Counted from the first letter of the stretch, positions 1-16,028 are shown. The stretch is 64,000 nucleotides of DNA from a virus (IMGVR_UViG_3300036820_000007:1-64000), one strand, 5' to 3'. Made by a program: numbers and translations. Notes: generated by a model from the sequence alone, not told the origin.

Positions 1-69
1 ACTGATCCGTTCCCCGCAGCGCACGGCCAAGGGTCGCGCGCCACAGCCAGCGGGCCGGTTCGGGCCGTC

Positions 70-453
70 TTACAGTTCCTGGGGCGTAAGCCCCGCGATG
101 CAGTCGGCGATGAGCGTCTGCGACAGGTAGAGCTTGTCGCCGACGTTACGGATTTCGGTCACTACGTCGCCGCCGGGCTCCACTAGCCCTCCTGCGTGGG
201 ATGGGCCGGGGTGGTCCGACTCTGACCACTGCGCCTCGTCGAACCTGCCGTAGACCAGGGTGCGGCCGTCCGCGTGCTGGCGCACCTCCATCTCGTAGGT
301 GTCCGCCTGGCCCTGCTCGACGGCCTGATCGTGGCGTGCGGGATCGCGGATCTCACAGCTGTCGCCGCTGACCCTCACGATCAGGGGCCACTCGTCCTCG
401 CTGATGCTGACCGGCCGCCGGTCCGTCAGCGGGATAGTGATGCGCTTGCTCAT
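70..453 (-). CDS. hypothetical protein (left-arm array)
   Basis: ATG at 453 preceded by GAGAGGAG. Confidence 0.7.
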   Translation of the reverse strand: MSKRITIPLTDRRPVSISEDEWPLIVRVSGDSCEIRDPARHDQAVEQGQADTYEMEVRQHADGRTLVYGRFDEAQWSESDHPGPSHAGGLVEPGGDVVTEIRNVGDKLYLSQTLIADCIAGLTPQEL

Positions 454-547
454 GGGTCTCCTCTCGGGCTGGCCTGGCATCTTCAGCATGCGGCTGGCCA
501 ATTCCGCGCGGACGGCCTTGCGGCCGTTTCGCCTTAGCGGGTCGAAC

Positions 548-802
548 TCAGCGGAAGTGCGCATAGACCCAATCTTCGCCCTGTTCGGCAGTTAGCCTGC
601 CGATCTCAGCGTGGTACTCAGCCTCTCCTTTATCGCTGATAGCTGTGACGTGGGGCCATGCGGGATCGTGCTCCAGCAGCCCGCGATCGTAGAGGTCGTT
701 CGCTATCGCCAGGGCATCTTCCGCCGGCTGGTAATTTTCCCGGTTGCGGTAGGCGGCGTGCAGGACGCTCATTTCGGCAGCCGTTAGGCGTCCGGTCGTC
801 AT
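548..802 (-). CDS. hypothetical protein
   Basis: ORF with AGAGGAG RBS. Confidence 0.65.
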   Translation of the reverse strand: MTTGRLTAAEMSVLHAAYRNRENYQPAEDALAIANDLYDRGLLEHDPAWPHVTAISDKGEAEYHAEIGRLTAEQGEDWVYAHFR

Positions 803-818
803 GCGGGTCTCCTCTTGA

Positions 819-1082
819 TTAGATCCACTGCAGGTCGTTGATTGCCCGCAGGTCCTTATCGGCGCAGAGCTTGTTCAGCTCCAGCGTGGTCATGCCGCGC
901 TTCTGGGCGCCCTCCCAGACCAGCCGCGGCGAGAACGCGCCAACCAGGATCGGCATGATGCTCTCGCAGAACCCTGCCATCGCCTGGGCGTCGGTGCAGT
1001 TCGCCGCGCCTGCCTTCTCGCCGTCGATCAGCGCCTGGGCGTAGGCGGTGCCCTCGTCGCACTTACGGATCTCGGTGGCCAT
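819..1082 (-). CDS. hypothetical protein
   Basis: ORF with GAGAGGAG RBS. Confidence 0.7.
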   Translation of the reverse strand: MATEIRKCDEGTAYAQALIDGEKAGAANCTDAQAMAGFCESIMPILVGAFSPRLVWEGAQKRGMTTLELNKLCADKDLRAINDLQWI

Positions 1083-1159
1083 TCGCAGTCTCCTCTCGAT
1101 TCCATCTTGGGCTGATTACCCAGGCGGACGCATCTGCGAGAGATGCGCCCTGGGGGTGG

Positions 1160-1405
1160 TCAGGCCTTCGAGCGCTCGGCATTCTTCAGCCACCGGTCGA
1201 ACACGCCTGCCGTGACGTCCATGTTCTTCAGCCTCGGCAGCTGCTCGACCCATTGCGGGAAGCCGATCGCCGTGTCCCACGGGATGAAATCCAGCAGGGT
1301 GCCGTCGGCCGCGTAAACGGCGTACGCCCAGCGTGGGCGGCCGCTCGGCCGTTGCATTGGGGCGCTCATGTACTGCGCGAGCGCGGGCTCCAGCTTGCCT
1401 GCCAT
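1160..1405 (-). CDS. hypothetical protein
   Basis: ATG 1405 after GAGAGGAG. Confidence 0.65.
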   Translation of the reverse strand: MAGKLEPALAQYMSAPMQRPSGRPRWAYAVYAADGTLLDFIPWDTAIGFPQWVEQLPRLKNMDVTAGVFDRWLKNAERSKA

Positions 1406-1583
1406 TGAGGGTCTCCTCTCGGTTAGTGGTGGTACCACAGGAACCACGCAATCAGGACCAGCGCGATAACTACGGACGACACATGCCTCCGTCTGTTCAT
1501 CTGCGCTGGCGTGGGCGGTGGCGCGGGGTGGTACTCGATGCCGCGCACGATCATGCGTCCCAGCATTTTTGCCTCCTCTTTTC

Positions 1584-2972
1584 CTAGTCGACTTCGCCGT
1601 CGGCGCCTGTCTCGGATGTCACGCCCGTCACACCCGTCTCGCCTGTCTCAAAGAAGTCGTCCAGGTCGTCCGCGTCCCCGTCGAACAGGGTCCGCGTGTC
1701 GTCCAGGTCGTCCTCGTCCTCATCTTCCGGCGTGTCGGGCTCCTTCGGCAGCCGCTGGGCAGCGATGCGGTCGATGTCCCTCAGCCAGTAGCCGCGCGCC
1801 TGGTCCGGGCAGATGTGCCGGGGGAGCCGCTCCGGCCGCACGGGCCGCATGGCGTCGGCGATGAAGTCCGCCAGCGCCTTCGGCGACATGCCCTCGTACA
1901 GCGGGCTGCGGAACTCCTGGACCGTCTCCACGATGAGACGCCCGGGTACCGGGTCCGTGCCGATCTTCCACGCGGCCAGCTGGATGTCGCGGATCGCGGT
2001 CTGCTTCGGCGTGAGCACCGGCTGATCTGCCTGGTCGATGGCAAGGTCCAGGAACGCCGAGAGGGCGCGCCGTGGCCAGTTTCCGCCAGCTATAGCGGCA
2101 CAGGCCAGGAGCGGCTCCCAGATCTCACGCCGCCGGCCGGTCAGCTTGGGGTGCAGCCCCTTGGCCCGGAACCGCTCCAGCTCGGCCAGGCGGCCTCGTA
2201 CCCAGCAGGACAGCGCGTCGCGCAGCAGGTCAGTCTGCGGGTCATGCTCGCGCACCGTGTAGTCGCAGCGAGGGTGCCCCACCTGCATCTTGATGACCAG
2301 GCAGCGAGAGCGGATGTCGTCCGGGACTGCCACCCCTCGGCCGGCCATGCCTGCTGCGGTGAAGATGTCGGCCTGCTCCGCTACGCGGTTAACCGAGAAG
2401 CTCTGCGTTGCCTTCTGCTTGTAGCCCTTGCGCAGGACCTTGCCGATCGGCGCGCCAGCCCCGGCGCGGCCCGACTTGCCGAACACATCTGAGATCTCGT
2501 CGATGATGATGGTCGGCTTCATGTCCGGCGGGCAGGCCAGCTTGGAGCGCAGCGCGTCCGGAGTCGCGTCCCCGTCCCACTGGTTGGCCGACAGGCCCCC
2601 GACCCGGGCGAGCGATTCCGACTTGCCCGAGCCCATCTCGCCGGCCAGCAGCAGCCGCGGCGTGGCGGGGAAGGCCTGCAGGCCGTGGGTGTGCGCTGCC
2701 CAAAGTGTCATGACGTCCAGCTGTGCCGCAGTGGCGTCGATGAATTTGGCCAGGAATTCCCGGCACTCATCCAGGACTGCCGCCGGGTCGGGCCCTATTC
2801 CGTCCCGCGTGTTGTCCGCGTCAATCTGGGCTACGGTCGCGTCTGCCAGCGCGGTTGCTGCGCCTGCCTCCGCGACGGCGGAGCGGATGTCGCCGTCGTC
2901 AGCCAGCACGGTCCCGCGCAATGTTCCCCCGAACATGGCGGGCGACGGCCGGTCAGTTGTCATTGTCGTCAT
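1584..2972 (-). CDS. DUF3631-like P-loop NTPase (replication/primase-helicase associated)
   Basis: Walker A GEMGSGKS, Walker B IIIDE, DDIRSRC and RRREIWEPLL motifs, acidic C-terminal tail. Confidence 0.75.
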   Translation of the reverse strand: MTTMTTDRPSPAMFGGTLRGTVLADDGDIRSAVAEAGAATALADATVAQIDADNTRDGIGPDPAAVLDECREFLAKFIDATAAQLDVMTLWAAHTHGLQAFPATPRLLLAGEMGSGKSESLARVGGLSANQWDGDATPDALRSKLACPPDMKPTIIIDEISDVFGKSGRAGAGAPIGKVLRKGYKQKATQSFSVNRVAEQADIFTAAGMAGRGVAVPDDIRSRCLVIKMQVGHPRCDYTVREHDPQTDLLRDALSCWVRGRLAELERFRAKGLHPKLTGRRREIWEPLLACAAIAGGNWPRRALSAFLDLAIDQADQPVLTPKQTAIRDIQLAAWKIGTDPVPGRLIVETVQEFRSPLYEGMSPKALADFIADAMRPVRPERLPRHICPDQARGYWLRDIDRIAAQRLPKEPDTPEDEDEDDLDDTRTLFDGDADDLDDFFETGETGVTGVTSETGADGEVD

Positions 2973-3009
2973 GATCTGTGCTCCCCTCCCTCTCTCACGT
3001 TCGTAAATG

Positions 3010-3044
3010 ACTATACCCCCCGTGGCAGCCTAGTCACTTGTGAC
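3010..3044 (-). promoter_or_regulatory. candidate promoter (GTGACT-16-TATAGT) overlapping palindrome GTCAC-TT-GTGAC
   Basis: Upstream of the DUF3631-like gene; near-identical 22-mer recurs at 23956-23977. Confidence 0.45.
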
Positions 3045-3126
3045 GCGCAAACACATGCCTGATCTCTGCACACCCCGGCAGGTACCAGGCATGAGCAGGT
3101 ACCTGCGGGGGTGAACCGGGACCGGG

Positions 3127-3423
3127 CTAGCTGGGCGTGGCGTCCTCTTCCGGTGCGCACTGCCCGGAGGCCAGGTACGTAGCCGCGCTGGCTACGGGCG
3201 CCGCGCGGAGCTGGCTCACTGCCGTGTCCAGCGACCGCAGCGCGTCCTGGTAGTAGGCCGCAACTAGATCGATCGCTTCCTTGCGTCCCTCCGGCGTCAG
3301 CCACACCGTGTCGATTGCGCGCTGCGCCATCCGCAGGCGGTTTACTGCCTGGCCTGCGTTCTCAACGGCCAGGACGGCCGCGTCCTCGATCGTGGACAGG
3401 GCCTCCTTCTCAGTGGGTGCCAT
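3127..3423 (-). CDS. hypothetical protein
   Basis: ATG 3423 after GAGAGGAG. Confidence 0.6.
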   Translation of the reverse strand: MAPTEKEALSTIEDAAVLAVENAGQAVNRLRMAQRAIDTVWLTPEGRKEAIDLVAAYYQDALRSLDTAVSQLRAAPVASAATYLASGQCAPEEDATPS

Positions 3424-3461
3424 GCTGGTCTCCTCTCGACTTGATGAAGCGCTGGTCAGCG

Positions 3462-3851
3462 TCAGTCCCGCGGCGGGGAACCTCGCCACGGCCCGTATTG
3501 CCTGCCGCCCGGATTCACGTCCACGCGCGGGAGCGTGCTCAGGTGAGCTGGCCGGAGTGCCATGCGCACGACGGCCTGGTGCTCGCTCGTAGTGCTGGAG
3601 TAGCGGACATCAGGCAGCCACCATGCATCCACATCGCCCGGCCCCGCCGCGGGAACGTGCCATGCGATTGGCGTCTCGTAGCTGAACACCACGTAATCGG
3701 CGTCCCGCAGGAACCGGTGATACTGCGCGGGCAGGTCACCGCATCCGGTGGCGCCGCCGTCCTCGGTTGGCCGGCCGCTTAGCCAGCGATCCCGGAACTC
3801 CGCACGCGCCGCGATGGCATCGTGCGGGCTAACCCGTTTTGCTGCCGTCAT
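3462..3851 (-). CDS. conserved phage hypothetical protein (YVVFSYETPIAW / YSSTTSEHQ)
   Basis: ORF, RBS, motif pattern familiar from actinophage early proteins. Confidence 0.7.
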   Translation of the reverse strand: MTAAKRVSPHDAIAARAEFRDRWLSGRPTEDGGATGCGDLPAQYHRFLRDADYVVFSYETPIAWHVPAAGPGDVDAWWLPDVRYSSTTSEHQAVVRMALRPAHLSTLPRVDVNPGGRQYGPWRGSPPRD

Positions 3852-3928
3852 GCTGATCTCCTCTCGGTTCTGCCTCTTAGCAGGCACGGCGCGGGCACGA
3901 GTCGCGCCCGGCCGAACCGGTTAAGCGG

Positions 3929-4180
3929 TCACTGAGCTGCGGGCTCCATGGAGATCGCGCCGCCCTGGAGAATCTCCCCGTTGTTGCCGTACCACATTGA
4001 GTCGACGCGGATAACCGCGCCCGTCTGCCGATGGGTAAAGACGGCTTCCGCCATTCCCTCGGCTGCCTCGACTTTGCAGGTGTACTGATCGAGCGGCAGG
4101 CCGAAGCCGGTAAGCCAGTCCGCTCTTAGCTGCTGTTCGATGCGCCGGTTAAGCACGGCGCCGCTGAGCGCGCGAGGCAT
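3929..4180 (-). CDS. hypothetical protein
   Basis: ORF abutting upstream gene. Confidence 0.55.
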   Translation of the reverse strand: MPRALSGAVLNRRIEQQLRADWLTGFGLPLDQYTCKVEAAEGMAEAVFTHRQTGAVIRVDSMWYGNNGEILQGGAISMEPAAQ

Positions 4181-4183
4181 GAC

Positions 4184-4588
4184 CTAGAGCCTCTCGGTGT
4201 GCCAGAGGTAGGCGTCGTACTTGTCACCGAGGAACTGCCGCAACTTGATCGTCTGCGCCTCGGTCTGGTCCCAGACCCTCTCCGGCTTCCGCGAGTCGGT
4301 GTCCCACCCGAATTCGCTGGCCCAGTCCTCGAAGCCGTCCGCGTTCTCGAAGCTGGCGGCCTCGCTGGCCAGGGAGTCCAGAACCTCGGCCGCCTCGGGC
4401 TCGCCCGTGAGTGCTGGCCCCATGCCGTAAGGCACCGTCATCTGCCGGCGTCCCATGCGCAGGGTCACCCGGTACCAGTTGGCCCGCTCGTGCTGGGGCC
4501 GGTCCTGATCCCAGGCGCTCGCTGGCGGGTCGGTCATCACTGACTCTGCCGTGATCTTGTCTCGCTGCACGCGCTCTAGCATGTCCAT
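4184..4588 (-). CDS. conserved phage hypothetical protein (FEDWASEFGWDTDSRK)
   Basis: ORF with GAGAGGG RBS. Confidence 0.7.
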   Translation of the reverse strand: MDMLERVQRDKITAESVMTDPPASAWDQDRPQHERANWYRVTLRMGRRQMTVPYGMGPALTGEPEAAEVLDSLASEAASFENADGFEDWASEFGWDTDSRKPERVWDQTEAQTIKLRQFLGDKYDAYLWHTERL

Positions 4589-4613
4589 TGCTTGCGTGTC
4601 CCCTCTCGGCGTC

Positions 4614-4681
4614 AAGTGCCAGGGCGGCACTTCCGCCGGTCAGGTACAGGATCGACCTGAGCGACGGGCTAGCAGCCCTGG
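4614..4681 (-). ncRNA. intergenic pseudoknot element, GCUAG-linker subtype
   Basis: 5' AGGGC pairs with loop GCCCU of the AAGUGCC/GGCACUU hairpin. Confidence 0.7.
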
Positions 4682-4687
4682 TTAGTG

Positions 4688-4969
4688 CTACTCGCCTTTG
4701 ACCTTGACCACGCGCACCGGTACAGCGTCGATCTGCCAGCCGCCCGGCGCGCTCGGGTCGCGGTGGTGGCCGTGCCAGAGGCCGCCGCGCCCGTCTCCGC
4801 CCCGGCGTTCGTCGTCGGGAATGACGTCAACCCGGGTCATTGGCCGGCCGCGCTCGTCGGTCAGTCCTACGTGGATCTCCACCACGCAGCCGTCTGTTTC
4901 GATGTGCATGACGTTCCCGGAGCGGTTGTGCCCCGCGTAGAACGTTTCCCGCCTCATTGGCGCAGGCAT
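4688..4969 (-). CDS. hypothetical protein
   Basis: ORF with GAGAGGAG RBS. Confidence 0.6.
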   Translation of the reverse strand: MPAPMRRETFYAGHNRSGNVMHIETDGCVVEIHVGLTDERGRPMTRVDVIPDDERRGGDGRGGLWHGHHRDPSAPGGWQIDAVPVRVVKVKGE

Positions 4970-5244
4970 TATGCGGTCTCCTCTCGTGTTGGGTTACTGT
5001 CCGTTGCTACGGGGATGACCACCCCGAGTTCCCGCAATTCCTCCAGGACCGCCGGGGAACTGACCGCGAGGGCAACCGTCCTCCCGGCCGCATCGGTCCC
5101 CAAAACCAGCACCGGGTCCGGGCCGAGATCACGGGTCATTTCTCTGGTGACCGCATCGATATTCATGAAACCTCTTTCCGGTTCTGTGCCTGGCGGCACA
5201 TCCCCGCCTACGGCTTGGTACCGCAGGCGGGAAATGCGCCAGGA

Positions 5245-5514
5245 TCAGGAATAGCGCGCGTTGCGCCGGTCTTCCTTGGCCGCGCTCTCGCTGTAGTCGT
5301 CGTCCTCGTCCTCTTCGGCATCGCTGAACATGGACACCGGGAGCGTTCCGCTGCCGCCGCAGATCGCGCACGGCCCCTCGTAATCCGGTTCGTCGTACGT
5401 ACGGTGCGACTCGCCCCGGTAGGTGCTCTGCCCGCTGCCGTCACAGGTTGTGCAGTAGGTCAGCGGGTTGCCGTCCTGGTCGGTGCCCACGATGGGCAGA
5501 TCGTCAAGCGCCAT
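5245..5514 (-). CDS. small Zn-finger protein (DnaJ-like CxxCxGxG x2)
   Basis: CTTCDGSG and CAICGGSG; RBS GAGAGGAGG. Confidence 0.65.
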   Translation of the reverse strand: MALDDLPIVGTDQDGNPLTYCTTCDGSGQSTYRGESHRTYDEPDYEGPCAICGGSGTLPVSMFSDAEEDEDDDYSESAAKEDRRNARYS

Positions 5515-5575
5515 GGCGGCGCCTCCTCTCGCTGATGCTCTTTGAGTCTCGCCCTGCCTGCCGACAGTCAGCGGT

Positions 5576-5920
5576 CTACGTGGTGCCGGTTATGTCGTAC
5601 TCGCCGATAAAGTTGCCATGGACGCCGCGGACCTTGCCCGTGCCGGTGCCTCCCTGCACGGTATTGGCGACCGTACGCAGAATGCCTCCCAGCGCATCTG
5701 GATGCGCGTCCACGCGATTGTCCAGCCTGATCTTGAGGTTGAACTCCGGCCCAGCGGGGGCCTTCGGGCCTGGGGCCTCGCCGCCGTTGAGGTAGTGGAC
5801 GCGCCCGGCGGCCTCTTCGGTACTGCCGTGGTCGCTCTCCGGCTCCCACCTGCCGTCTGGCCCGTAGAAGCCCACCGTCCAGAGCTGAGGCTCGCTGTGG
5901 ATGTAAACCCATGTCGTCAC
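5576..5920 (-). CDS. hypothetical protein
   Basis: GTG start after GAGAGGAG; SEPQLWTVGFY...VHYLNGG. Confidence 0.7.
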   Translation of the reverse strand: MTTWVYIHSEPQLWTVGFYGPDGRWEPESDHGSTEEAAGRVHYLNGGEAPGPKAPAGPEFNLKIRLDNRVDAHPDALGGILRTVANTVQGGTGTGKVRGVHGNFIGEYDITGTT

Positions 5921-5939
5921 TGCTGTCTCCTCTCATGTT

Positions 5940-6000
5940 GGGGTGAACACCCCGGCACGGTGCGGAGACTCGCGCCTCCGCGCCATGCCCGAACGTTCAC
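5940..6000 (-). ncRNA. intergenic pseudoknot element
   Basis: GUGAAC pairs with GUUCAC; GCGA tetraloop on long stem. Confidence 0.7.
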
Positions 6001-6393
6001 GCGCTCAGCGCCTCCGGCCGGGTGGCCTCCGCAAAGTGCTCCCGGTACTTCCGGTGTGCTGCCTGCTGGTTCATGCGCTCCCCGAACGGCTCCCCGCATT
6101 CGCAGATCCCTGCGTACCCCGGGTAGGTGGGGATGGAGAAATACCGGTGACCGGCATTGCGGGGGAGCGGTGGTGCGGCCTGCCCGGCCGCTGGCGCGTT
6201 CACGGCCTGAACGCGGCGAGGTGGCGAAGGTCGGCCCCGTCCCGCGTGGCTGCCGCTCGCTGTGACCGCTGGCCAGCAGCGAGCCGGATGGCCGCGCGCC
6301 GTACTCGTGGCGGACTTCCCAGAGCGCGCTCGGCTGCTCGGCGCTGTCTGCGCTCGGCTTCCCTCATTGACGGCATGGTGTCTCCTCTCGAAT

Positions 6394-6452
6394 CGCCCCG
6401 TGCGGGCGGGACGTGGCGACCCCCGGAGGGATCGCCCATCCTGTCGGCACGG
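6394..6452 (-). ncRNA. intergenic pseudoknot element
   Basis: CCGUGC pairs with GCACGG at the CGCCC/GGGCG hairpin. Confidence 0.7.
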
Positions 6453-6510
6453 TGACCGCTCAGTCACAAGTTACCATAGCGACCCCGCTCGGCTCGTCAG
6501 TTACGATGGG

Positions 6511-6843
6511 TCAAGGTTTCTCGTCCCACCCTTCGCATCCGGGACTGCCGCACGCGAGCACGCAGGCGCACTCCTCGCCCGGCGCTTTGCCCAGGCAGCG
6601 GGGACACGGCTTGCTGGCCTCTAGCCAGGCGTCGCGGTCGCTGGCCGGCTCCCAGTCGGCGCCGGTCCATTCCAGGCGTGCGCCGCTGTCGCCCTCGATT
6701 ACTGGCGCGTGGGCGTAGCGGGTGGCGTGAAACTGCGGGTCAACCGTGGCCAGCTGTCCGCACGTGAGGCACTTCTTAGCCTCCGCCCGGAGCGCGGCCA
6801 GCTGCTCGGCGGTGATCTCGCCGAAGGTGTCATTCCACGACAT
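6511..6843 (-). CDS. Cys-rich hypothetical protein
   Basis: CxxC pairs; ATG 6843. Confidence 0.55.
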   Translation of the reverse strand: MSWNDTFGEITAEQLAALRAEAKKCLTCGQLATVDPQFHATRYAHAPVIEGDSGARLEWTGADWEPASDRDAWLEASKPCPRCLGKAPGEECACVLACGSPGCEGWDEKP

Positions 6844-6850
6844 GGCGCAC

Positions 6851-7153
6851 CTACCTGACGTAGTGGTAAGCCGCCGGGCCGCCGCTCCACATGCGGGCGG
6901 TCCCGTGGTCCAGGTCGGTAAGGTGCGTCCGCTGCCTCCCGTTGCCGTGGCGCCAGGGGATAGCGGACGGGTCGGCCAGGATTTCGGCCAGCGACCACCG
7001 CCGCGTGACGTTGCCGAAGTTGTCGAGCGTGGCCGCGCCGGTGATCTTCCACTTGCCCGATGCCGTGTTGTACGGCGCTGGCAGTGACGGCCGGGCAATC
7101 GTGCCGTCGTCGTAGAGAGTCATGCTCTCCTCGTTATTAACGATCGTTCGCAC
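6851..7153 (-). CDS. hypothetical protein
   Basis: GTG 7153 after GAGAGGAG. Confidence 0.6.
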   Translation of the reverse strand: MRTIVNNEESMTLYDDGTIARPSLPAPYNTASGKWKITGAATLDNFGNVTRRWSLAEILADPSAIPWRHGNGRQRTHLTDLDHGTARMWSGGPAAYHYVR

Positions 7154-7227
7154 TGCTGTCTCCTCTCGCCTGCCCAAGCGGGCAACGGCCAGCACCCCGC
7201 CTCCATGGGGATGCTGCCCGCAACGCG

Positions 7228-7533
7228 CTAGGGTCGCCGCAACGCAGCCGCACGCTTCTCGTAAGCATCCGGGGGAGTGCGGAAGATCACCCGCAGCCGG
7301 TAGTGGTAGGGCGCGCTTTCCAGCTCGCGCCGCAGTGCCGCGTACTCGCCCGGGTTCGCCGGCCTGGTGGTGCCGATCACGTACGCCGGATCGGCCGCGC
7401 CGTGCTGGCCCATGTGCACAAACGACGTGCACTTGGCAGGCTCGCCCACCTCGGCGGGCAGGTACGGGAATAGCGCGATGATCTCGCCGTCCCGGAACTT
7501 GCGGAACATGACCGCCGTGATCTCTTCGGTCAT
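7228..7533 (-). CDS. conserved phage hypothetical protein (IIALFP / HMGQHGAA)
   Basis: ORF; recognisable small-protein motif. Confidence 0.7.
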   Translation of the reverse strand: MTEEITAVMFRKFRDGEIIALFPYLPAEVGEPAKCTSFVHMGQHGAADPAYVIGTTRPANPGEYAALRRELESAPYHYRLRVIFRTPPDAYEKRAAALRRP

Positions 7534-7536
7534 CGG

Positions 7537-7728
7537 TCAGCCCACGTCCCGGATGGTGACGTTATAGCGCGGCCCGTCGTCCGGGTCCGCACCGGCCGGT
7601 GTCACGATGAACTCCGCGACCCCGGCGCGCTCGTCTACCTCGAATGCTTCCCCCAGCTCGAAATCCGGGCTGGCATCGATCGCCTGCGCGATCTTCTCGG
7701 CGTCTGTTGATACGTTCGTCCATGCCAT
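7537..7728 (-). CDS. hypothetical protein
   Basis: ATG 7728 after GAGAGGAG. Confidence 0.6.
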   Translation of the reverse strand: MAWTNVSTDAEKIAQAIDASPDFELGEAFEVDERAGVAEFIVTPAGADPDDGPRYNVTIRDVG

Positions 7729-8059
7729 CGCTTGCTGTCTCCTCTCGCTGCCCGTACGGGCAGGACAGCCGGCCGGAACATGCCGGCCGGCATCCTGAAC
7801 GTGCGCGCTGGCATCGGTCAGGCCGCCGCGTAAGCGACCTGGCCGTTCCGTACGGTCGCCCGCGCTACTGGCGGGCGCCCATCCTGTACCGGGTGAACGT
7901 GCTGGCCGACGTTGCCCGACCCGCAGGCCGAGCCGTCGCAATCCACGATGCACGCACTAAGCGGCGGGTCGAAAATCATTGCCGTTGCCTTTCTCTCGAT
8001 TGCCCGTACGGGCATGACTCTCGGCCAGGGGAGCCCTAGCCGAGATCAAACGCGCGCGG

Positions 8060-8395
8060 TCAGCTTGGCGGTATCTCGGTAATGCGCAGGAACACAACGC
8101 GCCCGTGCCCGCGCTCCGCCTCTGCCTTGGTCCCGTACGGAAAGCACATTTCCAGCTGCCCGCGCGTATGCCAGATCATGCAAGGCTCGGTGTCCGCCTC
8201 GTGCCACTGGTAGGCGAACCCCATCCATCCCCAGTGCGTAACCGTGTCGCCCTCCGGCACCTCTTCCACGAGCACGCGGAGGATCGGTCCTTTCAGGCCA
8301 TGCATCCGCACGTAGCGCTCCGAGCCGATCGTGTGAAACCGGCCATCGTCGTACCGGTGGGCGTGCATCTCCCAGGACTGCCCTGGATCGGTCAC
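8060..8395 (-). CDS. hypothetical protein
   Basis: GTG 8395 overlapping upstream stop. Confidence 0.6.
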   Translation of the reverse strand: MTDPGQSWEMHAHRYDDGRFHTIGSERYVRMHGLKGPILRVLVEEVPEGDTVTHWGWMGFAYQWHEADTEPCMIWHTRGQLEMCFPYGTKAEAERGHGRVVFLRITEIPPS

Positions 8396-8853
8396 CGTTC
8401 CCCCTCTCGCGTTACCAGGGCCGGCGGATACCCGCCGTCTGGCCTTTGCTCGTCCTCGAAAAACGCGCACAGTCCCACCAGCCATGCCGGGGGATGGCTA
8501 ACCCCCTTGCGGGTGTACGCCCAGACCTGCCCGCCTGGCTTGCCGTCCGGCCGCACGCGAACCGTGGGGGACTCGTAAGGGTCCTCCTCGCGGAACTTGG
8601 TGTTAAGCGCGGCCATGAACAGGTCGTGATGCACGCCGGGCCCGATCTCCAGCACCCATCCCGTTACCGGCCGGATCTCGTAGCTGTACTTGCGGCTGAT
8701 GTGCTCCTCGCGCCATTTGACGCTGGCCTCGGCTTCGGGGCGGGTGAACGTGTCGCCCCACGGGTCGGTTGCCATGTTGTCCAGTCGCCTTGTCGCCCCG
8801 GTGTTGTTGTCGCGCTCGATGACTAGGCAGCGCTCCTCGCCGTGCTCGGTCAA
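8392..8853 (-). CDS. hypothetical protein
   Basis: TTG 8853 after GAGAGGAG. Confidence 0.6.
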   Translation of the reverse strand: MTEHGEERCLVIERDNNTGATRRLDNMATDPWGDTFTRPEAEASVKWREEHISRKYSYEIRPVTGWVLEIGPGVHHDLFMAALNTKFREEDPYESPTVRVRPDGKPGGQVWAYTRKGVSHPPAWLVGLCAFFEDEQRPDGGYPPALVTREGER

Positions 8854-8873
8854 AGCGTTCTCCTCTCGGTTGG

Positions 8874-8940
8874 GATGCCTAGGCGGCATCTCTCCGGCGC
8901 TCGTATCCGCAGACACGAGCGCCAGAGGCTAGCGGCCTGG
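8874..8940 (-). ncRNA. intergenic pseudoknot element, GCUAG-linker subtype
   Basis: AGGC pairs with loop GCCU of GAUGCC/GGCAUC. Confidence 0.7.
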
Positions 8941-9144
8941 GCGTACGGTCAGTAGCTCAGCGAGCCGTCGCCGATGCCTTTTGCGACCTGGTCATAGTCG
9001 GGAAGCTCGGCGCCGTCCCGGCTCTTCTTCAGGCGCATGAGTTCGGCAGCCTCCACCTTGCGCGCGCCGGCCGCCTCGAAGAAGTCCCGGAACTCCCCGA
9101 TCGAGCACTTGCCGTTGCTGTCCACCCTGTGTCTCCTCTCGTTA

Positions 9145-9214
9145 GATGCCGAGGTGGCATCCCCGCGAGGCTCGCACCACAGCGGGCGCGAGCATCACGG
9201 GCTAGCTACCTAGG
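9145..9214 (-). ncRNA. intergenic pseudoknot element, GCUAG-linker subtype
   Basis: AGGU pairs with loop ACCU; compensatory change relative to the 8874 copy. Confidence 0.7.
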
Positions 9215-9298
9215 TCTGCGCGCTAGCGCCCGTTCCGCGAATGCCACGACAAGCGCGGCGAGGATGTTGTCGGCATGCCAGATGATCCGGCGCACGGG

Positions 9299-9514
9299 CT
9301 AGCCTTCGGCCGTGATCTCGGCGATCTGCTCGTCCGTGGCACCCGTCGCCTTGGCCAGCCGGACGGCCAGATCGTGCGGCAGGTCACCGCGCCAGATAGC
9401 GTCCTCCGGCTGCGGGTAGGTTCCCGCCTCCAGCTCTTTGATCACGCTGTCGAGCTGCGGCCCCGAACAGACGATCGCCGGATGCGGCATTGCAAACTTG
9501 CGCTTCATGCTCAT
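9299..9514 (-). CDS. hypothetical protein
   Basis: ORF with GAGAGGAG RBS. Confidence 0.55.
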   Translation of the reverse strand: MSMKRKFAMPHPAIVCSGPQLDSVIKELEAGTYPQPEDAIWRGDLPHDLAVRLAKATGATDEQIAEITAEG

Positions 9515-9528
9515 GTCTCCTCTCGAAT

Positions 9529-9586
9529 TGCCCTAGCAGGGCATGGCGCCCCATCGTGCGAGACGATGGGGGCCAAACGCCGCTAG
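9529..9586 (-). ncRNA. intergenic pseudoknot element, CGUU-linker subtype
   Basis: CUAGCGG pairs with CUGCUAG (G-U only on minus strand). Confidence 0.7.
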
Positions 9587-9910
9587 CTACCTCCCGAGCC
9601 GCGCGTCGCGCTGCGCGTCGTTCTCCACCTGGAGGATGTAGCCGCTCTTGTCGTGCATGGGGACGCGGTAGACGCGCTTGCCCACGTCGCCCGGCAGAAC
9701 GCGGCCCATGAAGTTGGCCACGGGCCAGACTTGCCCGAAGGCGCCGATGGTGGCGCGCCCCACGTCGCGGGGTCCGATCTCGAAAAAACGGCCCGCAGGA
9801 ACCGGGCACAGCTCCACCTCGGTGCCATCGACCGACCGGCCGACGAGCGTGCGGCCCGCTTGAAGGCTGCGCAGCTCTTCCGTGGTTACTTCAATTACGA
9901 TCCTTGCCAT
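9587..9910 (-). CDS. hypothetical protein
   Basis: ORF with GAGAGGAG RBS. Confidence 0.65.
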   Translation of the reverse strand: MARIVIEVTTEELRSLQAGRTLVGRSVDGTEVELCPVPAGRFFEIGPRDVGRATIGAFGQVWPVANFMGRVLPGDVGKRVYRVPMHDKSGYILQVENDAQRDARLGR

Positions 9911-9926
9911 GATCGGCTCCTCTCGG

Positions 9927-9984
9927 TGCCCCTAGCGGGCAGTGAGCCGTACCGGTTGCCCGATACGGCCGGACAGCTCGCTAG
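9927..9984 (-). ncRNA. intergenic pseudoknot element
   Basis: CUAGCG/CGCUAG; 11-bp stem with 2 G-U pairs and a GCAA tetraloop. Confidence 0.7.
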
Positions 9985-10160
9985 CCGCCGTACTTGAGAT
10001 GATGCGCCGGCTTGTCGCCCTCGACTACCGGCAGAATCGCCGCGTCGATCTCGGCGCGGTTGGCGCGGATGAAAGCGCGCTTGGACTGGCGCGAGCGGCG
10101 CCACCAGTCGTAAAGGCCCTCGTCGTTGTCAATCCACTGCTCGCGCTCGGTGTCGTTCAT
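9981..10160 (-). CDS. hypothetical protein (WIDNDEGLY)
   Basis: ATG 10160. Confidence 0.6.
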   Translation of the reverse strand: MNDTEREQWIDNDEGLYDWWRRSRQSKRAFIRANRAEIDAAILPVVEGDKPAHHLKYGG

Positions 10161-10331
10161 ACCGCGATCACCTCGATATCCTTGTATCCCTGGCTGGCCA
10201 GGTGATCGGCCAGCGAATCGGCTTCCCGCTTCGGCCAGGTCTCTTTGCCATCGCCGTCTACCCACGCGATGCCATCCACGATGACCTGATACATGCTGTC
10301 TCCTCTCGCACGGCCGGACGTCTGGATTCCG

Positions 10332-10514
10332 CTAGTTGCGAGCCGGCGTGTTCTCGGCAGTCTCCAGCTCGCATGAAATGAACTTTGGCGCCTCCGCTGT
10401 GCCTTGCATCAGGTAGGCAAGGCGCCAGATAGCGCTATCCCGATCCGCGGCCCGTACCTGGTTAGCGCGCTTGCCGCCCGCCATGTCTTCCCAGGTCACG
10501 ACGTAGGACTCCAT
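10332..10514 (-). CDS. hypothetical protein
   Basis: ATG after GAGAGGAG. Confidence 0.55.
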   Translation of the reverse strand: MESYVVTWEDMAGGKRANQVRAADRDSAIWRLAYLMQGTAEAPKFISCELETAENTPARN

Positions 10515-10602
10515 AGCCTGTCTCCTCTCGCGTACCCCGTACGGGCACCCTCCGCAACCGCTGGCACCCTGGCCAGCGATCACGGGCAGCGTCCGGTCGT
10601 GC

Positions 10603-10779
10603 TCACACTGCCGCTAGAATGCGCTCCGCTGCGGCAGGTACAGTCTCGATCGCCGCAGCCTGCCTGCCGTGGCGGTAGCCGTAGCTGTAGCTTGATCCGG
10701 GCGCCCCGTCATTCGGCCATGGCCTGCCTGCCATGCCATCCGCGTAGCCGTCCCTCTTCCCTGCCTGGTAAGGGGTCAT
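10603..10779 (-). CDS. hypothetical protein (YxxGxxDG repeats)
   Basis: ATG after GAGAGGAG. Confidence 0.55.
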   Translation of the reverse strand: MTPYQAGKRDGYADGMAGRPWPNDGAPGSSYSYGYRHGRQAAAIETVPAAAERILAAV

Positions 10780-10869
10780 TGCTGTCTCCTCTCGCGCGTG
10801 CCTGCCATCGGGCACACTCCGCGCGGCCTGGTCCATTGCTGAGCCAGGCATCACGGGCAGCGTCCGCGG

Positions 10870-11265
10870 CTACTTGCCCTTGAGTGCCCCGCTGATCAGC
10901 TTGCCGAGCTTTTCCAGCTGGCCGCGTACCTCGCTGATCATGTCGGGCACTGGGTGAGTGTTCACGATCTCATCCATGCCGACGTGCCAGCCGGAATGCT
11001 GGCCTCCGCGGAACGGCTCCGTCTCCGCCGGCATGTCGCCGAACTCGACGGACCAGAGCGAATCCTCCGCACCGTCGATTTCCTGGCCATCGATCACCGG
11101 CCGCACAATGACTCCCACGTACTGCCAGTCGCCGCGCTTGAATGCCGCCTTGTCCGACGCGCTGTAGCAGTCCGCGTCATCGGGGGATGAGTCGCAGTCG
11201 GGCGAGATCATCACGCGGTAGCTGATGCCATCGCGCGTGATCGTGCGCTCCTCTATCAGGTCCAA
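10870..11265 (-). CDS. conserved phage hypothetical protein (WQYVGVIV / DSLWSVE)
   Basis: TTG 11265 after GAGAGGAG. Confidence 0.65.
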   Translation of the reverse strand: MDLIEERTITRDGISYRVMISPDCDSSPDDADCYSASDKAAFKRGDWQYVGVIVRPVIDGQEIDGAEDSLWSVEFGDMPAETEPFRGGQHSGWHVGMDEIVNTHPVPDMISEVRGQLEKLGKLISGALKGK

Positions 11266-11356
11266 TTGGTGCTCCTCTCGGTGCGCCTTCTGTCGGGCAC
11301 GCTCCGCAGCGTTCATCCCCCCAATCCGGGGGAGTGAGCGCCACGGGCAGTGTCCG

Positions 11357-11641
11357 CTAGCGCCGGTAGGTGCCGATCAGCTGGAAACGCCAGTTGATCG
11401 ATCCGCCGATGTCCGGCAGCGCGGCCGGCGGTTCGGCTGTCTCCAGCTGCGCGGCCGGGGAGCCGTAGGACACGATTCGCAGTTCGCCCGCATTGCGGCT
11501 TGACAGATCGTGGTTTTCGTACATCGCCGCGCCGTCCCCGCGTGCCAGCCATCGGCCAACTATGGCCATGACTTCGGGCGCCTGGTCCTCGTAACGCTCG
11601 CTCACCCATGCGCCGAACGTCTCATCTGTGAACGTGATCAC
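11357..11641 (-). CDS. hypothetical protein
   Basis: GTG after GAGAGGAGG. Confidence 0.65.
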   Translation of the reverse strand: MITFTDETFGAWVSERYEDQAPEVMAIVGRWLARGDGAAMYENHDLSSRNAGELRIVSYGSPAAQLETAEPPAALPDIGGSINWRFQLIGTYRR

Positions 11642-11663
11642 TTGCGTGCCTCCTCTCGGTTAG

Positions 11664-11728
11664 TCCCCGTACGCGGGAACATGGCAGCCTGCCGGACTAG
11701 CCCAGCAAGCGCCATGAACTAGCGTGCG
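11664..11728 (-). ncRNA. intergenic pseudoknot element
   Basis: ACGC pairs with loop GCGU; AGUU linker. Confidence 0.65.
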
Positions 11729-11733
11729 CCTGG

Positions 11734-12042
11734 TTACTCGGCCGTCGGGAAGCGTTCCGAACCCTCGTCAGCGCTCCCGTTGTGGTCGCCCCTGTAGATG
11801 CACTGCGTGTAGCCGGCTGTGCAGTTACAGCGTGACTCGCACGCAGGGCAGTCGTACAGCCTGCCTGGCTCGTGCGGGTAGTCGGCATGCGGCGGCCCGT
11901 CCAGCTCCCCACGGTCGGCAGCGTCAAGAATCGCGCCGATGGCCGGCGCGCTTGCCGTGAGTTCCGCCTGGAACTTGTCCAGGGCGCGTTCGGTAGCCGC
12001 GCGCCGCTCCTCTGGCGTCATGTCGCCTAGCGTCTTGCCCAT
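11734..12042 (-). CDS. Cys-rich hypothetical protein
   Basis: ATG after GGAGGAG; HADYPHEPGRLYDCPAC. Confidence 0.6.
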   Translation of the reverse strand: MGKTLGDMTPEERRAATERALDKFQAELTASAPAIGAILDAADRGELDGPPHADYPHEPGRLYDCPACESRCNCTAGYTQCIYRGDHNGSADEGSERFPTAE

Positions 12043-12130
12043 GGCCGCATCTCCTCCCGGTGCAGATTTTCTGCACACTCCTGCGTGCTCACACCCCAGA
12101 GCATGAGCACGCAGGGCAGTGCAGACTGCG

Positions 12131-12460
12131 CTACAGCGCGGCCAGGCAGTTGCCGCACTGGCCAGGCATCTCGCCGCCAACGGGCCAGTTGTACGTCTGG
12201 CATGCCGGGCATTCCCGGCCGCGCTCACGGTGCCAGGCGATCCAGGCCGGCCAGTTGGGTGATTCGCGGAAGTCCCGCGGCAGCGTTCCCCCAGCCGCGA
12301 ACCATGCGTCAAGCGCGTCGTGGTAGCTCGTGGCGCTCTCCAGCATCGCTGCCGCAGTGTCCGCGTATCCCAATTCCAGCATTGCGCGAATGTCGCAATG
12401 GCTGTCGTTGCACGGGTGATCCGTCTCGACTGCCGTTGCCAGGTCATCCATGGTTGGCAT
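12131..12460 (-). CDS. Zn-ribbon hypothetical protein
   Basis: CPAC...CGNC; RBS. Confidence 0.6.
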   Translation of the reverse strand: MPTMDDLATAVETDHPCNDSHCDIRAMLELGYADTAAAMLESATSYHDALDAWFAAGGTLPRDFRESPNWPAWIAWHRERGRECPACQTYNWPVGGEMPGQCGNCLAAL

Positions 12461-12671
12461 TGCTGTCTCCTCTCATGTGTGCATGTTCCGCACACTCCAC
12501 AGTGCCCGCACCTAGCGGGCACCATGGGCAGTGCGGACTGCGCGTTACCGGCGTCCTAGAACGTGGTAACGAAACCCGCGACCGCGGCACCGGCAGGCAG
12601 CCCGGTGCAGCTTCCGGTTGTGCAGGTAACTGCGGTAATGGCGCAAGTTCACCGTGCTATCTCCTCTCACC

Positions 12672-12743
12672 ATGCCTACCGAACGTAAGCACGTGGCCAG
12701 CAACGGGGGAGTGCTCCCCGCTCCTGGCCATGCGCCGGCGTCC
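12672..12743 (-). ncRNA. intergenic pseudoknot element, CCGG-linker subtype
   Basis: GGACG pairs with CGUUC. Confidence 0.65.
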
Positions 12744-13271
12744 CTACCGATCTTCCGCGAACAGTGCCAGCCGGTCGGCAGCCGTGGCGATGATCGCGGT
12801 TGCGTCTGTGTCACAGCCGCGCGTCGGCAGGAAACCCGCTAGCTCGCGTGCCATCTGAGCGTGCGTCCTGGGTGCGCCCGACGCGAGGTCATCGCCGTTG
12901 GTGATCTCGGTTCCGTCCGCGTACACCGCGTAGTCCCACCCGTTGTGAGCGTAGGACTGGCCAACCGTCCCCCCGCCATGCGCCGAGATTGCGATGATGA
13001 GTGTTGGCTCATCGCTCGGCGCGCGGTTCATTGCGGGAACCGTGACCTTGTATTCATGCTGTGCCAGCGTGTAGCCGTACAGCGTGTGATCATCCATGGC
13101 GCGTAACTCCCCGTCGTTTCCCTGCAGAGACTGAGGCCACGGGCACGGCGCTATCCCTTTTGCGATCAGCTCGGCATCATGATTACGCAGGTAGTCTGCG
13201 TAATCCTTGCCGAACATCTGCCCGGCCTTCCGGTAGCCCCTTTCGCACTCGGGGCGTTCCGTTACCGCCAT
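12744..13271 (-). CDS. hypothetical protein
   Basis: ATG after GAGAGGAG. Confidence 0.65.
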   Translation of the reverse strand: MAVTERPECERGYRKAGQMFGKDYADYLRNHDAELIAKGIAPCPWPQSLQGNDGELRAMDDHTLYGYTLAQHEYKVTVPAMNRAPSDEPTLIIAISAHGGGTVGQSYAHNGWDYAVYADGTEITNGDDLASGAPRTHAQMARELAGFLPTRGCDTDATAIIATAADRLALFAEDR

Positions 13272-13292
13272 TCCGCTGTCTCCTCTCATTGC

Positions 13293-13356
13293 CGGCCGGT
13301 CTAGGCCGAGTGAGCACGCAGGCTAGCTACAGGCTGCGTGCTCAACTGCCGACCGG
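13293..13356 (-). ncRNA. intergenic pseudoknot element, GGCAGU-linker subtype
   Basis: CCGGUC pairs with GACCGG; related copy near 14725-14790. Confidence 0.65.
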
Positions 13357-13910
13357 ATAGCCGCTCATCATCCCTCGTGCCCCTCCTCCTCGGTATGAGT
13401 GCAGCGATGCTCGCACGTTCTCTCGTGATGCTCGCAACCGCAGCACTCGCAATGGTCGGACCTGCCCTCGGTGGCGCCACAGTGACACCACCATTGACCC
13501 TCGCGCTGTTCCATACGCCCCGTCATCGCCGTCTCCTCTCGCTAGCGTGTCCGTTATGCATTAAGCCTGACCAGGTACACCGTGCTTTTGCTTCCGCAGA
13601 CGGTCCAGGCCGCCTGCCTCCCTGGTACAGATTCGGCGAATACTCCCATCACCGCTGGATTCTCGCCTTTGCCGGTTTCGCCCGGCACGGTCGGCGCATG
13701 CACTAACCGCCCACTTAGGCGGCACGATGGTCACGCGCCGGCGTTGTGCGCGCTTGCCCTGTTGCCAGGGGCGCGCGTTTCTCCCTCATCCCGCATTGGC
13801 CAGGTTCGAACCATCACGCCGATCGGCAGTTATCGCCTAGCGGTCTGCCAGGGCCGTAGCGCTGGCCTGCCTAACACTGCCTGGCTTGCGGGACCTGGCG
13901 GGCCCCCCTC

Positions 13911-14120
13911 TCAGAAAGATATGTCGCCCCACGCTGACCAGTCCTGTACCAGCGTGGCCATGTGATCCTGGAACGCCTGCCAGTCGGCCGCGGTCCAGTC
14001 CTTACGAGGCTTGGTCTGCCAGTCCATGGCGTCCCCCTCTCGCTCGCGCAGTTGCAGCTCGTTCGTGATTTCGTAAAGCGCTTCGTGCAACTCGTCCGTC
14101 GTCATCTTGCCGACGTTCAT
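13911..14120 (-). CDS. hypothetical protein
   Basis: ATG after GAGAGGAGG. Confidence 0.6.
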   Translation of the reverse strand: MNVGKMTTDELHEALYEITNELQLREREGDAMDWQTKPRKDWTAADWQAFQDHMATLVQDWSAWGDISF

Positions 14121-14138
14121 TGCAGCCGCCTCCTCTCG

Positions 14139-14210
14139 GTGCCCACAGAGCGTAAGCACGTGGCCCGGCCAGCGAACCTGAGCACGCTGGCCGGCCATGT
14201 ACCGGCGCTA
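14139..14210 (-). ncRNA. intergenic pseudoknot element, CCGG-linker subtype
   Basis: AGCG pairs with CGCU; compensatory relative to the 12672 copy. Confidence 0.65.
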
Positions 14211-14561
14211 CGGTCCTTCCGTTGCTACCAGCCCGGTACGCGTCCACAGGATCTGATCCCGCGTTCCGGTGTACCAGAAGCATCCCCGCACGCTGAATAC
14301 TTGCTCGCATGCGACTTCCGGTGCTCGCTGAACACACACGTAGGTGTGCCTGTCGATCCCCATGGACGCGCCGCGCTTGCACGCTGCCATGATCTGCCGG
14401 CGCGTGGCGTGGTGAACCGTCGCCGCGTGAGCGCCGCTCAGCCCGTAGCCAGCCAGGCCGCCGGCGATGGCAACCGCAACTGCGGCCGTCCTGACGATTC
14501 GCCGCGACCGGCTAGCCGGTGCAGCATGGCGCCTGGTGACCTTACGGTGATTCCCCCGCAT
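14208..14561 (-). CDS. putative secreted protein
   Basis: Basic N-terminus, hydrophobic stretch, AHA signal-peptidase-like site. Confidence 0.55.
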   Translation of the reverse strand: MRGNHRKVTRRHAAPASRSRRIVRTAAVAVAIAGGLAGYGLSGAHAATVHHATRRQIMAACKRGASMGIDRHTYVCVQRAPEVACEQVFSVRGCFWYTGTRDQILWTRTGLVATEGP

Positions 14562-14793
14562 TGCTGTCTCCTCTCGGTTAGCGCTGATCAGCGCTGCACG
14601 GCGCGCAATCTCGCCGGCCTGGTGGCCGGTGCCTAGGGTGCTTTACCTCCTCCCCGTAGCGGCCTGGAGTGCCTAGGATCGCTCTCCAGGGATTGCGTGC
14701 CATGCCGAACGTGACCAGTGTTCCGATCCGGCCCGGTCAAGGCCGAGTGGGCGCACGTACATGACGCGTGCGCTCAACTGCCGGCCGGACTTG

Positions 14794-15069
14794 CTACAGC
14801 GTCTCGCCCCGCCCGTGGAAAGCCAGGCTGTTCCACGGCATCGTTGCCGTTGTTCCGCCGTCAAACTCCACGGTGACGAAACCGGGCTGCTGCGCGTGCT
14901 GATCGATGACTGTTCCCTCGTCGCCGCTCTTGCGCAGCGTGACGCGCGTCCCGTTCGGGATGAGGGCCGGCCGTTCCCCGCGCGGCCCGCGTGGGCCGGC
15001 GTGAAAGAAATGGCACACCGCGCAGTTGCCCGGATCGGTGCCGTCATCGGTGAACTCGTGAAGCCCCAC
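14794..15069 (-). CDS. hypothetical protein
   Basis: GTG after GAGAGGAG. Confidence 0.55.
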   Translation of the reverse strand: MGLHEFTDDGTDPGNCAVCHFFHAGPRGPRGERPALIPNGTRVTLRKSGDEGTVIDQHAQQPGFVTVEFDGGTTATMPWNSLAFHGRGETL

Positions 15070-15086
15070 AGCTGTACTCCTCTCGC

Positions 15087-15153
15087 TTGCCCTAGCGGGC
15101 AAGGAAACGGCCAGCACCGGTCAGGGTGCTGGCCCTTCGGCCAACTCGCTAGG
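15087..15153 (-). ncRNA. intergenic pseudoknot element
   Basis: CCUAGCG pairs with CGCUAGG; AGUU linker; 10-bp stem. Confidence 0.7.
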
Positions 15154-15382
15154 TCAGGCCGTCGCCGTTGGCGTCCGCGAGCATGATCAGCAGCTCAGCG
15201 ACGGTTGTCACGTCTGTGTAGCGGGTCACGGCGATGCCCGTGCGGTCCGCCAGGACACGCCGCAAGCCGGCCACGGTGTGACCGCCGAGCGACTGATCGA
15301 TCGCGGCGAAAACTGCGCTGGTCACTGCAAAGTGACCGTGAGCATTGGTCAGGCGCAAGATGCCGCGCTGCCTGTCGTTCAT
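15149..15382 (-). CDS. hypothetical protein, first gene of left-arm operon
   Basis: ATG after GAGAGGAG. Confidence 0.6.
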   Translation of the reverse strand: MNDRQRGILRLTNAHGHFAVTSAVFAAIDQSLGGHTVAGLRRVLADRTGIAVTRYTDVTTVAELLIMLADANGDGLT

Positions 15383-15394
15383 CGTTCTCCTCTC

Positions 15395-16028
15395 GATACC
15401 GGGCATGATCGCCCGTGAGAGCACTGAGCGGCGGTATCCGGAAGGCGATCCCCGGCCGCGCGCCTGCGAGTTAGCCCCTAGGCGATTCGCCTAGGCTCGG
15501 TGCGCCTCATGCCGCATGCTCAGTGCTCACACGGGAGCACCGGAACCGCAGGCACGTGCAAGTAGCTGCTTTCGCGCTCGCGGTTCCGGTGTCCCAGTTA
15601 GAGGAGTGCCGGCCATGTCAGGGTGCTGAGCATCGGGCGCTTTCGCGCCGGGAACTGCTCAGGATGCCGATGTGCTGACTCGCGCTTACCTTCCGGGATC
15701 GGTGTGCTGATCCTCGCGGTTTCCCCTATGCGGAAGGTCTTGCCTGACATGGCCGGCTGATCTCACCCGTACCGCTTACCGAGGCGGTACACCCGTCTCA
15801 GCAGTGCGGGCGAGAAGTCTTGTCTTGCTATGTCCCCGGAACGCCGGGGGTTCGGATACTTGCGGCTAGCCGGGACCGGGACACCCGCCAGGCTCTTAAC
15901 CCCTGGCGTCTCACCTTGTCGGCCCTTGCGGGGCGAATCCAGCTGGCGCGTGCTTCAGTTCTCTTGCCCAACCGTGACCCCTTGCGGGGCGGGGCGCCGG
16001 TGCCTGTCACTGCGTGTCCGGCCGATCG
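15395..16028 (-). ncRNA. candidate large structured RNA / 5' leader (~640 nt)
   Basis: Nested long helices (15608-15622 with 15743-15757, 15 bp; 15538-15549 with 15580-15591; 15412-15429 with 15518-15535); several GAAA/GCAA tetraloops on the minus strand; no credible ORF. Confidence 0.65.

Follow-up and report, generated by a model that had tools for sequence, protein, structure and literature searches.

Introduction

In the early transcripts of the phages T7 (sites R0.3-R1.3) and SP82, irregular hairpins of about two helical turns separate consecutive genes on a single RNA; these hairpins are mutually related, and a strong, purine-rich ribosome site follows just downstream. For SP82, a Bacillus phage, an RNase III site combined with a polypurine 5′ stabiliser is said to have been described by Hue in 1995. 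Cluster K phages carry start-associated sequences (SAS), asymmetric conserved motifs with a ribosome-site core a few bases before the start codon, which occur in one orientation, in the non-structural arm only, and at genes with unusually long spacers. Inverted repeats are present upstream of about half of these sites; these extended SAS (ESAS) are 17-bp imperfect repeats separated by 4–13 bp, their departures from symmetry do not support RNA pairing, and they were proposed to be DNA-binding sites (PMC3203893, PMC12699233). In T4-type phages, short regulatory units called promoter early stem-loops (PeSL), each made of a sigma-70 early promoter and a terminator, lie between the small orphan genes of a hyperplastic region, where relatives differ by whole genes (PMC2839356, PMC4122927). 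Integron attC sites, finally, have conserved complementary ends and a variable centre and separate promoterless, co-oriented cassettes. Here we describe an RNA element, 21 copies of which (the modules) were found in IMGVR_UViG_3300036820_000007:1-64000. This 64,000-nucleotide stretch (the window) covers the first 64 kb of a soil virus record in IMG/VR that is 98.5 kb long, with 66% G+C.

Each module consists, from 5′ to 3′, of the upstream stop codon, a flank (X), a long hairpin (HP1), a short hairpin (HP2), the 8-nt ribosome-site motif GAGAGGAG and the start codon. The element has two mutually exclusive folds that share bases, and is not a pseudoknot. Like the T7 and SP82 signals, the modules are mutually related, lie between consecutive co-oriented genes, contain an irregular duplex of about two turns (20–27 bp, mean 23.2) and are followed by a strong purine-rich ribosome site. 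In contrast to them, a competing second hairpin shares the bases of the basal helix, the stop codon is built in and cleavage is a prediction, and there is no sequence or Rfam relation between the two groups. The SAS arrangement of a motif 3–7 bp before starts, asymmetric, in one orientation, restricted to the non-structural arm and associated with long spacers, is found here as well. However, GAGAGGAG differs from the 13-bp SAS consensus (PMC3203893), ESAS-type repeats are absent, and the helices show strong covariation around a hypervariable hairpin of 25–45 nt. The modules recall PeSL in that relatives differ by whole genes at short units set between small orphan genes, and differ from them in having no promoter or T-run terminator (the hairpin followed by a U-run of intrinsic terminators is not seen), hairpin and ribosome site lying within one transcript. 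They share with attC sites the complementary ends, the variable centre and the promoterless co-oriented cassettes, whereas the RYYYAAC/GTTRRRY cores are absent, the ribosome site is part of the unit and no integrase was detected among 20 proteins scanned.

Results

Modules of the early arm

The source of the record is an uncultured soil actinophage. Its terminase, portal, tape-measure and tail genes begin at about 19 kb on the plus strand, and its closest cultured relatives by terminase are the Actinoplanes phage phiAsp2 and the Streptomyces phage TurkishDelight, at 53% identity. Positions 1–15400 of the window contain about 37 small genes, all on the minus strand. An earlier note, based on an inspection of the window, had claimed some 20 copies of a covarying RNA element placed in front of these genes, and we confirmed 21 well-formed modules with the described anatomy, all within 3858–15155 of the minus strand. 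Module limits were curated, automatic hairpin parsing having proved unreliable. The spacers mostly measure 60–100 nt and fold strongly: 37 of the 53 upstream regions in this phage and its relative G001 (see below) have z < -2 against dinucleotide shuffles.

The motif GAGAGGAG is present in 30 copies in the 98.5-kb record, 28 of them on the minus strand from 458 to 15394. Each early-arm copy lies 4–11 nt before a start codon and is often extended; the motif can form eight contiguous pairs (one of them G-U) with the 3′ tail of actinobacterial 16S rRNA. HP2, whose loop has 3–8 nt, ends 1–6 nt upstream of this ribosome site, which remains comparatively open (mean unpaired probability 0.62, versus 0.38 over the whole region). 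At the other end of the module, a stop codon occupies the 5′ edge of X in 17 of the 21 modules, its first base being 13–28 nt before the base of HP1; the remaining four have no stop codon nearby.

Helices supported by covariation and strand bias

In the HP1 helix, both partners have changed at 12 of 13 pairs, with a covariation score that none of 500 shuffles reached, and 84% of the alignment cells pair as compared to 35–52% when the partner was slid. HP2 exists as 20 different stems in the window; cognate halves give −9.8 kcal/mol versus −5.35 kcal/mol for chimeras (permutation p ~1e-5). For the helix formed by X with its complement X′ in the HP2 region, a duplex test with windows of 45 and 28 nt had given no signal (p = 0.38), swamped by the GC-rich background, and was replaced by an anatomy-based test with curated boundaries. 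The 18-nt flank and its cognate HP2 region then gave a mean of −12.95 kcal/mol versus −9.29 kcal/mol for non-cognate combinations, and none of 100,000 permutations reached the cognate mean (p ~1e-5). All pairs between X and the HP2 loop listed in the earlier note were recovered. Single copies also carry matched changes. In contig L224 (see below), the element at 6334–6396 differs at two X positions and at the two matching X′ positions while neighbouring box bases are fixed; copies 7803 and 9974 of the related locus L206 have an additional G in X and an additional C in X′; and window copy 9524 has an additional G opposite an additional U in X/X′.

Several observations point to the RNA level. 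Folding of the sense strand is favoured over that of the antisense strand by 2.6 kcal/mol (Wilcoxon p = 2.7e-5), G-U pairs outnumber A-C oppositions in the modules (56 versus 20), and covariance-model matches score 60–86 bits on the sense strand versus less than 28 bits on the antisense strand. All matches of the whole-genome model search are on the minus strand, at 3858–15155. The strand bias claimed earlier from G-U pairs is real, whereas the argument from GNRA loops is weak, GNRA or UNCG loops being found in 5 of 42 cases on the sense strand versus 1 of 42 in antisense. The claim of a repeated, covarying module that lies on the sense strand in front of gene after gene is supported. A match to a known Rfam family was sought and none was obtained at gathering score; the sole match with E < 1 was to a miRNA hairpin far below cut-off and is due to chance. 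Neither sigma-70-like promoters (2 found versus 1.7 expected, none inside modules) nor T-run terminators (9 versus 7.5 expected) are enriched.

The array and the curated modules are as follows (SD, Shine-Dalgarno ribosome site; bits, score against the covariance model; types A and B are the two repeat types defined below).

458–15394, minus strand: early-arm array of small genes, holding 28 of the 30 genomic copies of the 8-nt ribosome-site motif GAGAGGAG
15077–15152, minus strand: module, type A; SD 15077–15084, HP2 15086–15103, HP1 15109–15134, flank X and upstream stop 15135–15152; 43 bits
14130–14215, minus strand: module; SD 14130–14137, HP2 14139–14159, HP1 14161–14197, flank 14198–14215
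13280–13362, minus strand: module; HP2 13292–13309, HP1 13311–13344
12661–12748, minus strand: module, related to the module at 14137; one X/X′ pair altered on both sides between these copies
12467–12545, minus strand: module, type B; the HP2 5′ strand doubles as outer 3′ strand of the long hairpin
12051–12133, minus strand: module, type B, SD variant GGGAGGAG
11650–11734, minus strand: module with a weaker X/X′ helix
11272–11364, minus strand: module, type B
10786–10874, minus strand: module, type B
10522–10603, minus strand: module, type B
9917–9988, minus strand: module, type A; 37 bits
9517–9593, minus strand: module, type A; paired indel, one extra base on each side of X/X′
9133–9218, minus strand: module
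8860–8941, minus strand: module
7990–8065, minus strand: orphan module; degenerate SD, not followed by a gene; found by the covariance model, 38 bits
7739–7809, minus strand: module, type A-like
7160–7234, minus strand: module, type A; top match to the model from the related phage alone, 60.6 bits, E 1e-12
6382–6454, minus strand: module
5927–6007, minus strand: module
4600–4685, minus strand: module, SD variant GAGAGGGG
3858–3932, minus strand: module, type A-like

Two competing folds

The earlier note had X pairing with the HP2 loop while HP2 stands, in a pseudoknot. The complementarity is real, and loop bases belong to X′ in 20 of 21 modules; X′ never consists of the loop alone, however, and overlaps stem or junction bases of HP2 in all 21. 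X′ usually takes in the start of the HP2 3′ strand as well, and only about four of ten paired X′ bases come from the loop. Moreover, the X/X′ helix is nested around HP1 as the base of one extended hairpin, and ordinary nested folding places it in the lowest-energy fold of most spacers. Because X/X′ uses stem bases of HP2 and nests around HP1, the two helices are alternatives. In fold 1, the extended hairpin of 20–27 bp, the basal helix joins the stop-bearing flank X to the 5′ strand, the loop and the first 3′-strand bases of HP2. In fold 2, HP1 and HP2 stand side by side and the ribosome site is accessible.

We rejected the H-type pseudoknot, and with it the analogy to an exonuclease-resistant RNA (xrRNA), on base usage and loop length. 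The crossing helices on separate bases of such a fold are not found, the HP2 stem bases being shared in 21 of 21 modules. With loops of 3–8 nt, full pairing with X would leave 0–1 nt over a helix of 4–7 bp, a distance that 0–1 nt cannot cross in H-type geometry.

The two folds are close in energy: when each was forced, the mean difference was 0.3 kcal/mol. The ensemble probability of HP2 is below 0.3 in 14 of the 21 modules and above 0.75 in five, and in the related locus L206 nine copies have the extended form as their lowest-energy fold and eight have HP1 with HP2. The extended helix measures 23.2 ± 1.9 bp although HP1 alone ranges from 9 to 17 bp.

Relatives and cassette exchange

A relative, G001 (locus L206; contig IMGVR_UViG_3300036821_000178), was reached via a 131-aa array protein. 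Its terminase and capsid protein are 73% and 81% identical to those of the present phage, and its array carries 20 copies of GAGAGGAG, each behind one of two repeat types (A and B) in which conserved 5′ and 3′ boxes surround a hypervariable hairpin. The UAG within the conserved 5′ box often serves as the stop codon. A covariance model built only from 11 type A copies of L206 found the module at 7160–7234 of the window (60.6 bits, E 1e-12) and six more left-arm sites at E < 0.001, all in sense orientation. The same boxes occur in a third contig (L224; IMGVR_UViG_2866673921_000001, minus strand 1690–6786), associated with a different start-associated motif, GAAGGGAGCA, in 9 copies; several of these have an additional short hairpin between the long hairpin and the ribosome site, whose stem varies and whose loop keeps UCAUCA.

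The tetranucleotide CTAG is 4.6 times commoner in positions 1–16000 of the window than in 16001–64000 (2.69 versus 0.58 per kb), because both module boxes contain it. In L206, a CU-repeat tract (4100–4206, plus strand) precedes the first module and pairs with the ribosome site of this module in the lowest-energy fold; it may provide an anti-SD control of the first gene.

The arrays of the window and of G001 have only one gene family in common, yet the same two module types, and the common family follows a different type in each phage. In another soil metagenome (run X2), contigs align to parts of the arm at 85–99% identity and skip or replace segments relative to this phage. According to the contig summaries, the six better joints have 12 end points, 11 of which fall within 8 nt of a stop codon or of the edge of a ribosome site. 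Examples are 13367/13542, 11728/12050, 5572/5940, 7540/7999 and 9525/10166; two of the six joints rest on short 23-nt anchors, and a seventh (5130/6791, 22-nt anchor) was set aside. One of these contigs joins 7999 directly to 7540, at the orphan module 7990–8065, as if the segment 7541–7998, with the gene 7537–7728 and its own module, had been inserted there. Shufflable cassettes had been suggested in the earlier note, and modules are indeed found at the joints; as the only conserved sequence in the array, they therefore also serve as joints for cassette exchange between phages.

Further searches returned no nucleotide match among GenBank phages, in near or distant mode, and exact motif scans of viral contigs gave single chance matches only. 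The pattern of box plus SD was found in G001 alone among viral contigs, and in genome contigs as ten single matches in unrelated bacteria, about the number estimated by chance; the loci L207 and L223 have no clear modules. In TurkishDelight (L125, record 74.5–90 kb), gene-by-gene spacers of 75–200 nt have one strong hairpin right after the stop codon, and some contain repeated TTGACA-type promoter-like sequences, which gives them a PeSL-like look. We rejected them as copies of the module: they lack HP2 and the GAGAGGAG motif.

Discussion

Proposed connectors of an early operon

The structure of the modules and their behaviour as connectors between cassettes are shown by these sequences; for their function we propose a model. 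We tentatively favour, while allowing that it may well be wrong, an interpretation of the modules as intercistronic RNA connectors, with RNase III-type processing, of one long early operon of orphan genes, the whole arm presumably forming a single transcript. RNase III requires a duplex of about two helical turns, and the extended helix would act as a processing signal in the style of T7 early mRNA. Cleavage of this helix, or its opening by a ribosome that terminates on X, would free the 3′ strand to refold into HP2. Together with the strong ribosome site, HP2 would then shield the new 5′ end from 5′-end-dependent decay; according to the review PMC7509114, which cites Emory 1992 and Hue 1995, mRNA is stabilised by 5′-terminal hairpins and strong ribosome sites. 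Each cassette could in this way become a separately stable, well-translated and insulated unit. Such a model would explain jointly why the duplex length is constant, why bases are shared, where HP2 lies and why the class has its own extended ribosome site.

Several points weigh against this model. The cleavage, the transcript ends and the half-lives that it supposes are predictions. The length of the extended helix is partly set by the 18-nt limit chosen for the 5′ flank, the stems contain on average about nine unpaired bases, which may block RNase III, and the near-equal energies of the two folds could be a by-product of the origin of the element. G-T pairs also form in single-stranded DNA, so that the strand bias leaves a DNA hairpin partly possible, and mosaic phage genomes in general often break at gene borders.

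What sets the module apart from known connector signals is the presence of competing selected helices with a built-in stop codon. Two helices under selection that compete for shared bases and include a stop are an unusual and directly testable design. The modules are a covariation-backed RNA family that bears on how a high-GC soil phage expresses and swaps orphan early genes by the dozen, with a standard connector in front of each, and they link three partly understood phenomena, namely T7-type processing sites, the SAS/ESAS of Cluster K and PeSL shuffling. Where several genes are to be expressed in actinobacteria, members of this family could act as portable insulators.

Alternative explanations

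A ribosome-operated coupling switch, as put forward in the earlier note, appears to us unlikely. Termination inside X would open the basal helix and let HP2 form, and the base of the hairpin would hold the next ribosome site close to the stop codon, with the subunit handed to the next cassette. In the 17 of 21 modules whose stop codon marks the 5′ edge of X, a ribosome that terminates there would unwind X, and the spacing to the base of HP1 is within its reach. In addition, both alternative helices are under selection and nearly equal in energy, and the stop of L206 copies often coincides with the 5′ box. However, the ribosome site is sequestered in neither fold and no on/off logic is visible; the four modules without a nearby stop codon do not fit, and the orphan module 7990–8065 and some L206 modules keep the 5′ box where it is not the stop. 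We find it distinctly unlikely that the array is a relay of ribosome-operated two-state switches, in which termination on the built-in stop would flip a nuclease-sensitive two-turn duplex to HP1 and HP2; if this were true, the fate and the translation of each cassette in the 15-kb operon would depend on translating the preceding one.

We give little credence to the idea that the boxes are a binding or cutting site of a phage or host RNA-binding protein, exerting class-wide control like T4 RegB or RegA. The box sequences, including two conserved 1×1 mismatches, are near-identical in three phages although pairing permits any sequence, GAGAGGAG is confined to the early arm, and L224 has its own class-specific motif, several modules there adding the hairpin with a conserved loop. 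Against such a site, there are at least ten unrelated X/X′ and HP2 sequences within one genome, which a single sequence-specific reader cannot fit, and a Pfam scan of the 20 array and flanking proteins found no RNA-binding or nuclease domain.

A DNA-level element, in which single-stranded DNA hairpins or recombination sites such as integron attC or repetitive extragenic palindromes (REP) are primary and the RNA effect secondary, is similarly hard to credit. It would fit the conserved complementary ends and variable palindromic centre between promoterless co-oriented orphan genes, the breakpoints at modules and the CTAG enrichment of the arm. Nevertheless, the same Pfam scan found no recombinase domain, the consensus of the attC cores is not matched by the boxes, the modules keep a tight association with stop codon, ribosome site and direction of transcription, and the ribosome-site motif belongs to the conserved unit.

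Two further explanations are scarcely tenable. Terminators without a U-tract, read through via an antitermination system, would account for a strong GC-rich hairpin after each gene, but intrinsic termination by actinobacterial RNA polymerase requires a U-tract, T-run terminators show no enrichment and there are no internal promoters to restart transcription. Equally improbable is the pseudoknot first proposed, which with X on the loop of a standing HP2 would block a 5′–3′ exonuclease like an xrRNA: the complementarity of X and the HP2 loop covaries, but the cognate helix always takes stem bases of HP2, would consume the loops fully and is nested around HP1 in what is, for most modules, the lowest-energy ordinary fold.

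Other genes of the window

The single Pfam match among the 20 proteins scanned was DUF3631, in a protein of 462 aa encoded at 1584–2972 on the minus strand. Outside the arm, a full-length threonyl-tRNA synthetase with an archaeal-type editing domain is encoded on the plus strand (19068–20954), adjoining the terminase gene. It proved a poor marker for relatives: two loci at 90% identity, L126 and L127, show no synteny to the window and lie on contigs that are probably cellular. The synthetase is 86–93% identical to metagenome proteins, and the lack of phage synteny around L126 and L127 suggests a recent capture from a host-like actinobacterium.

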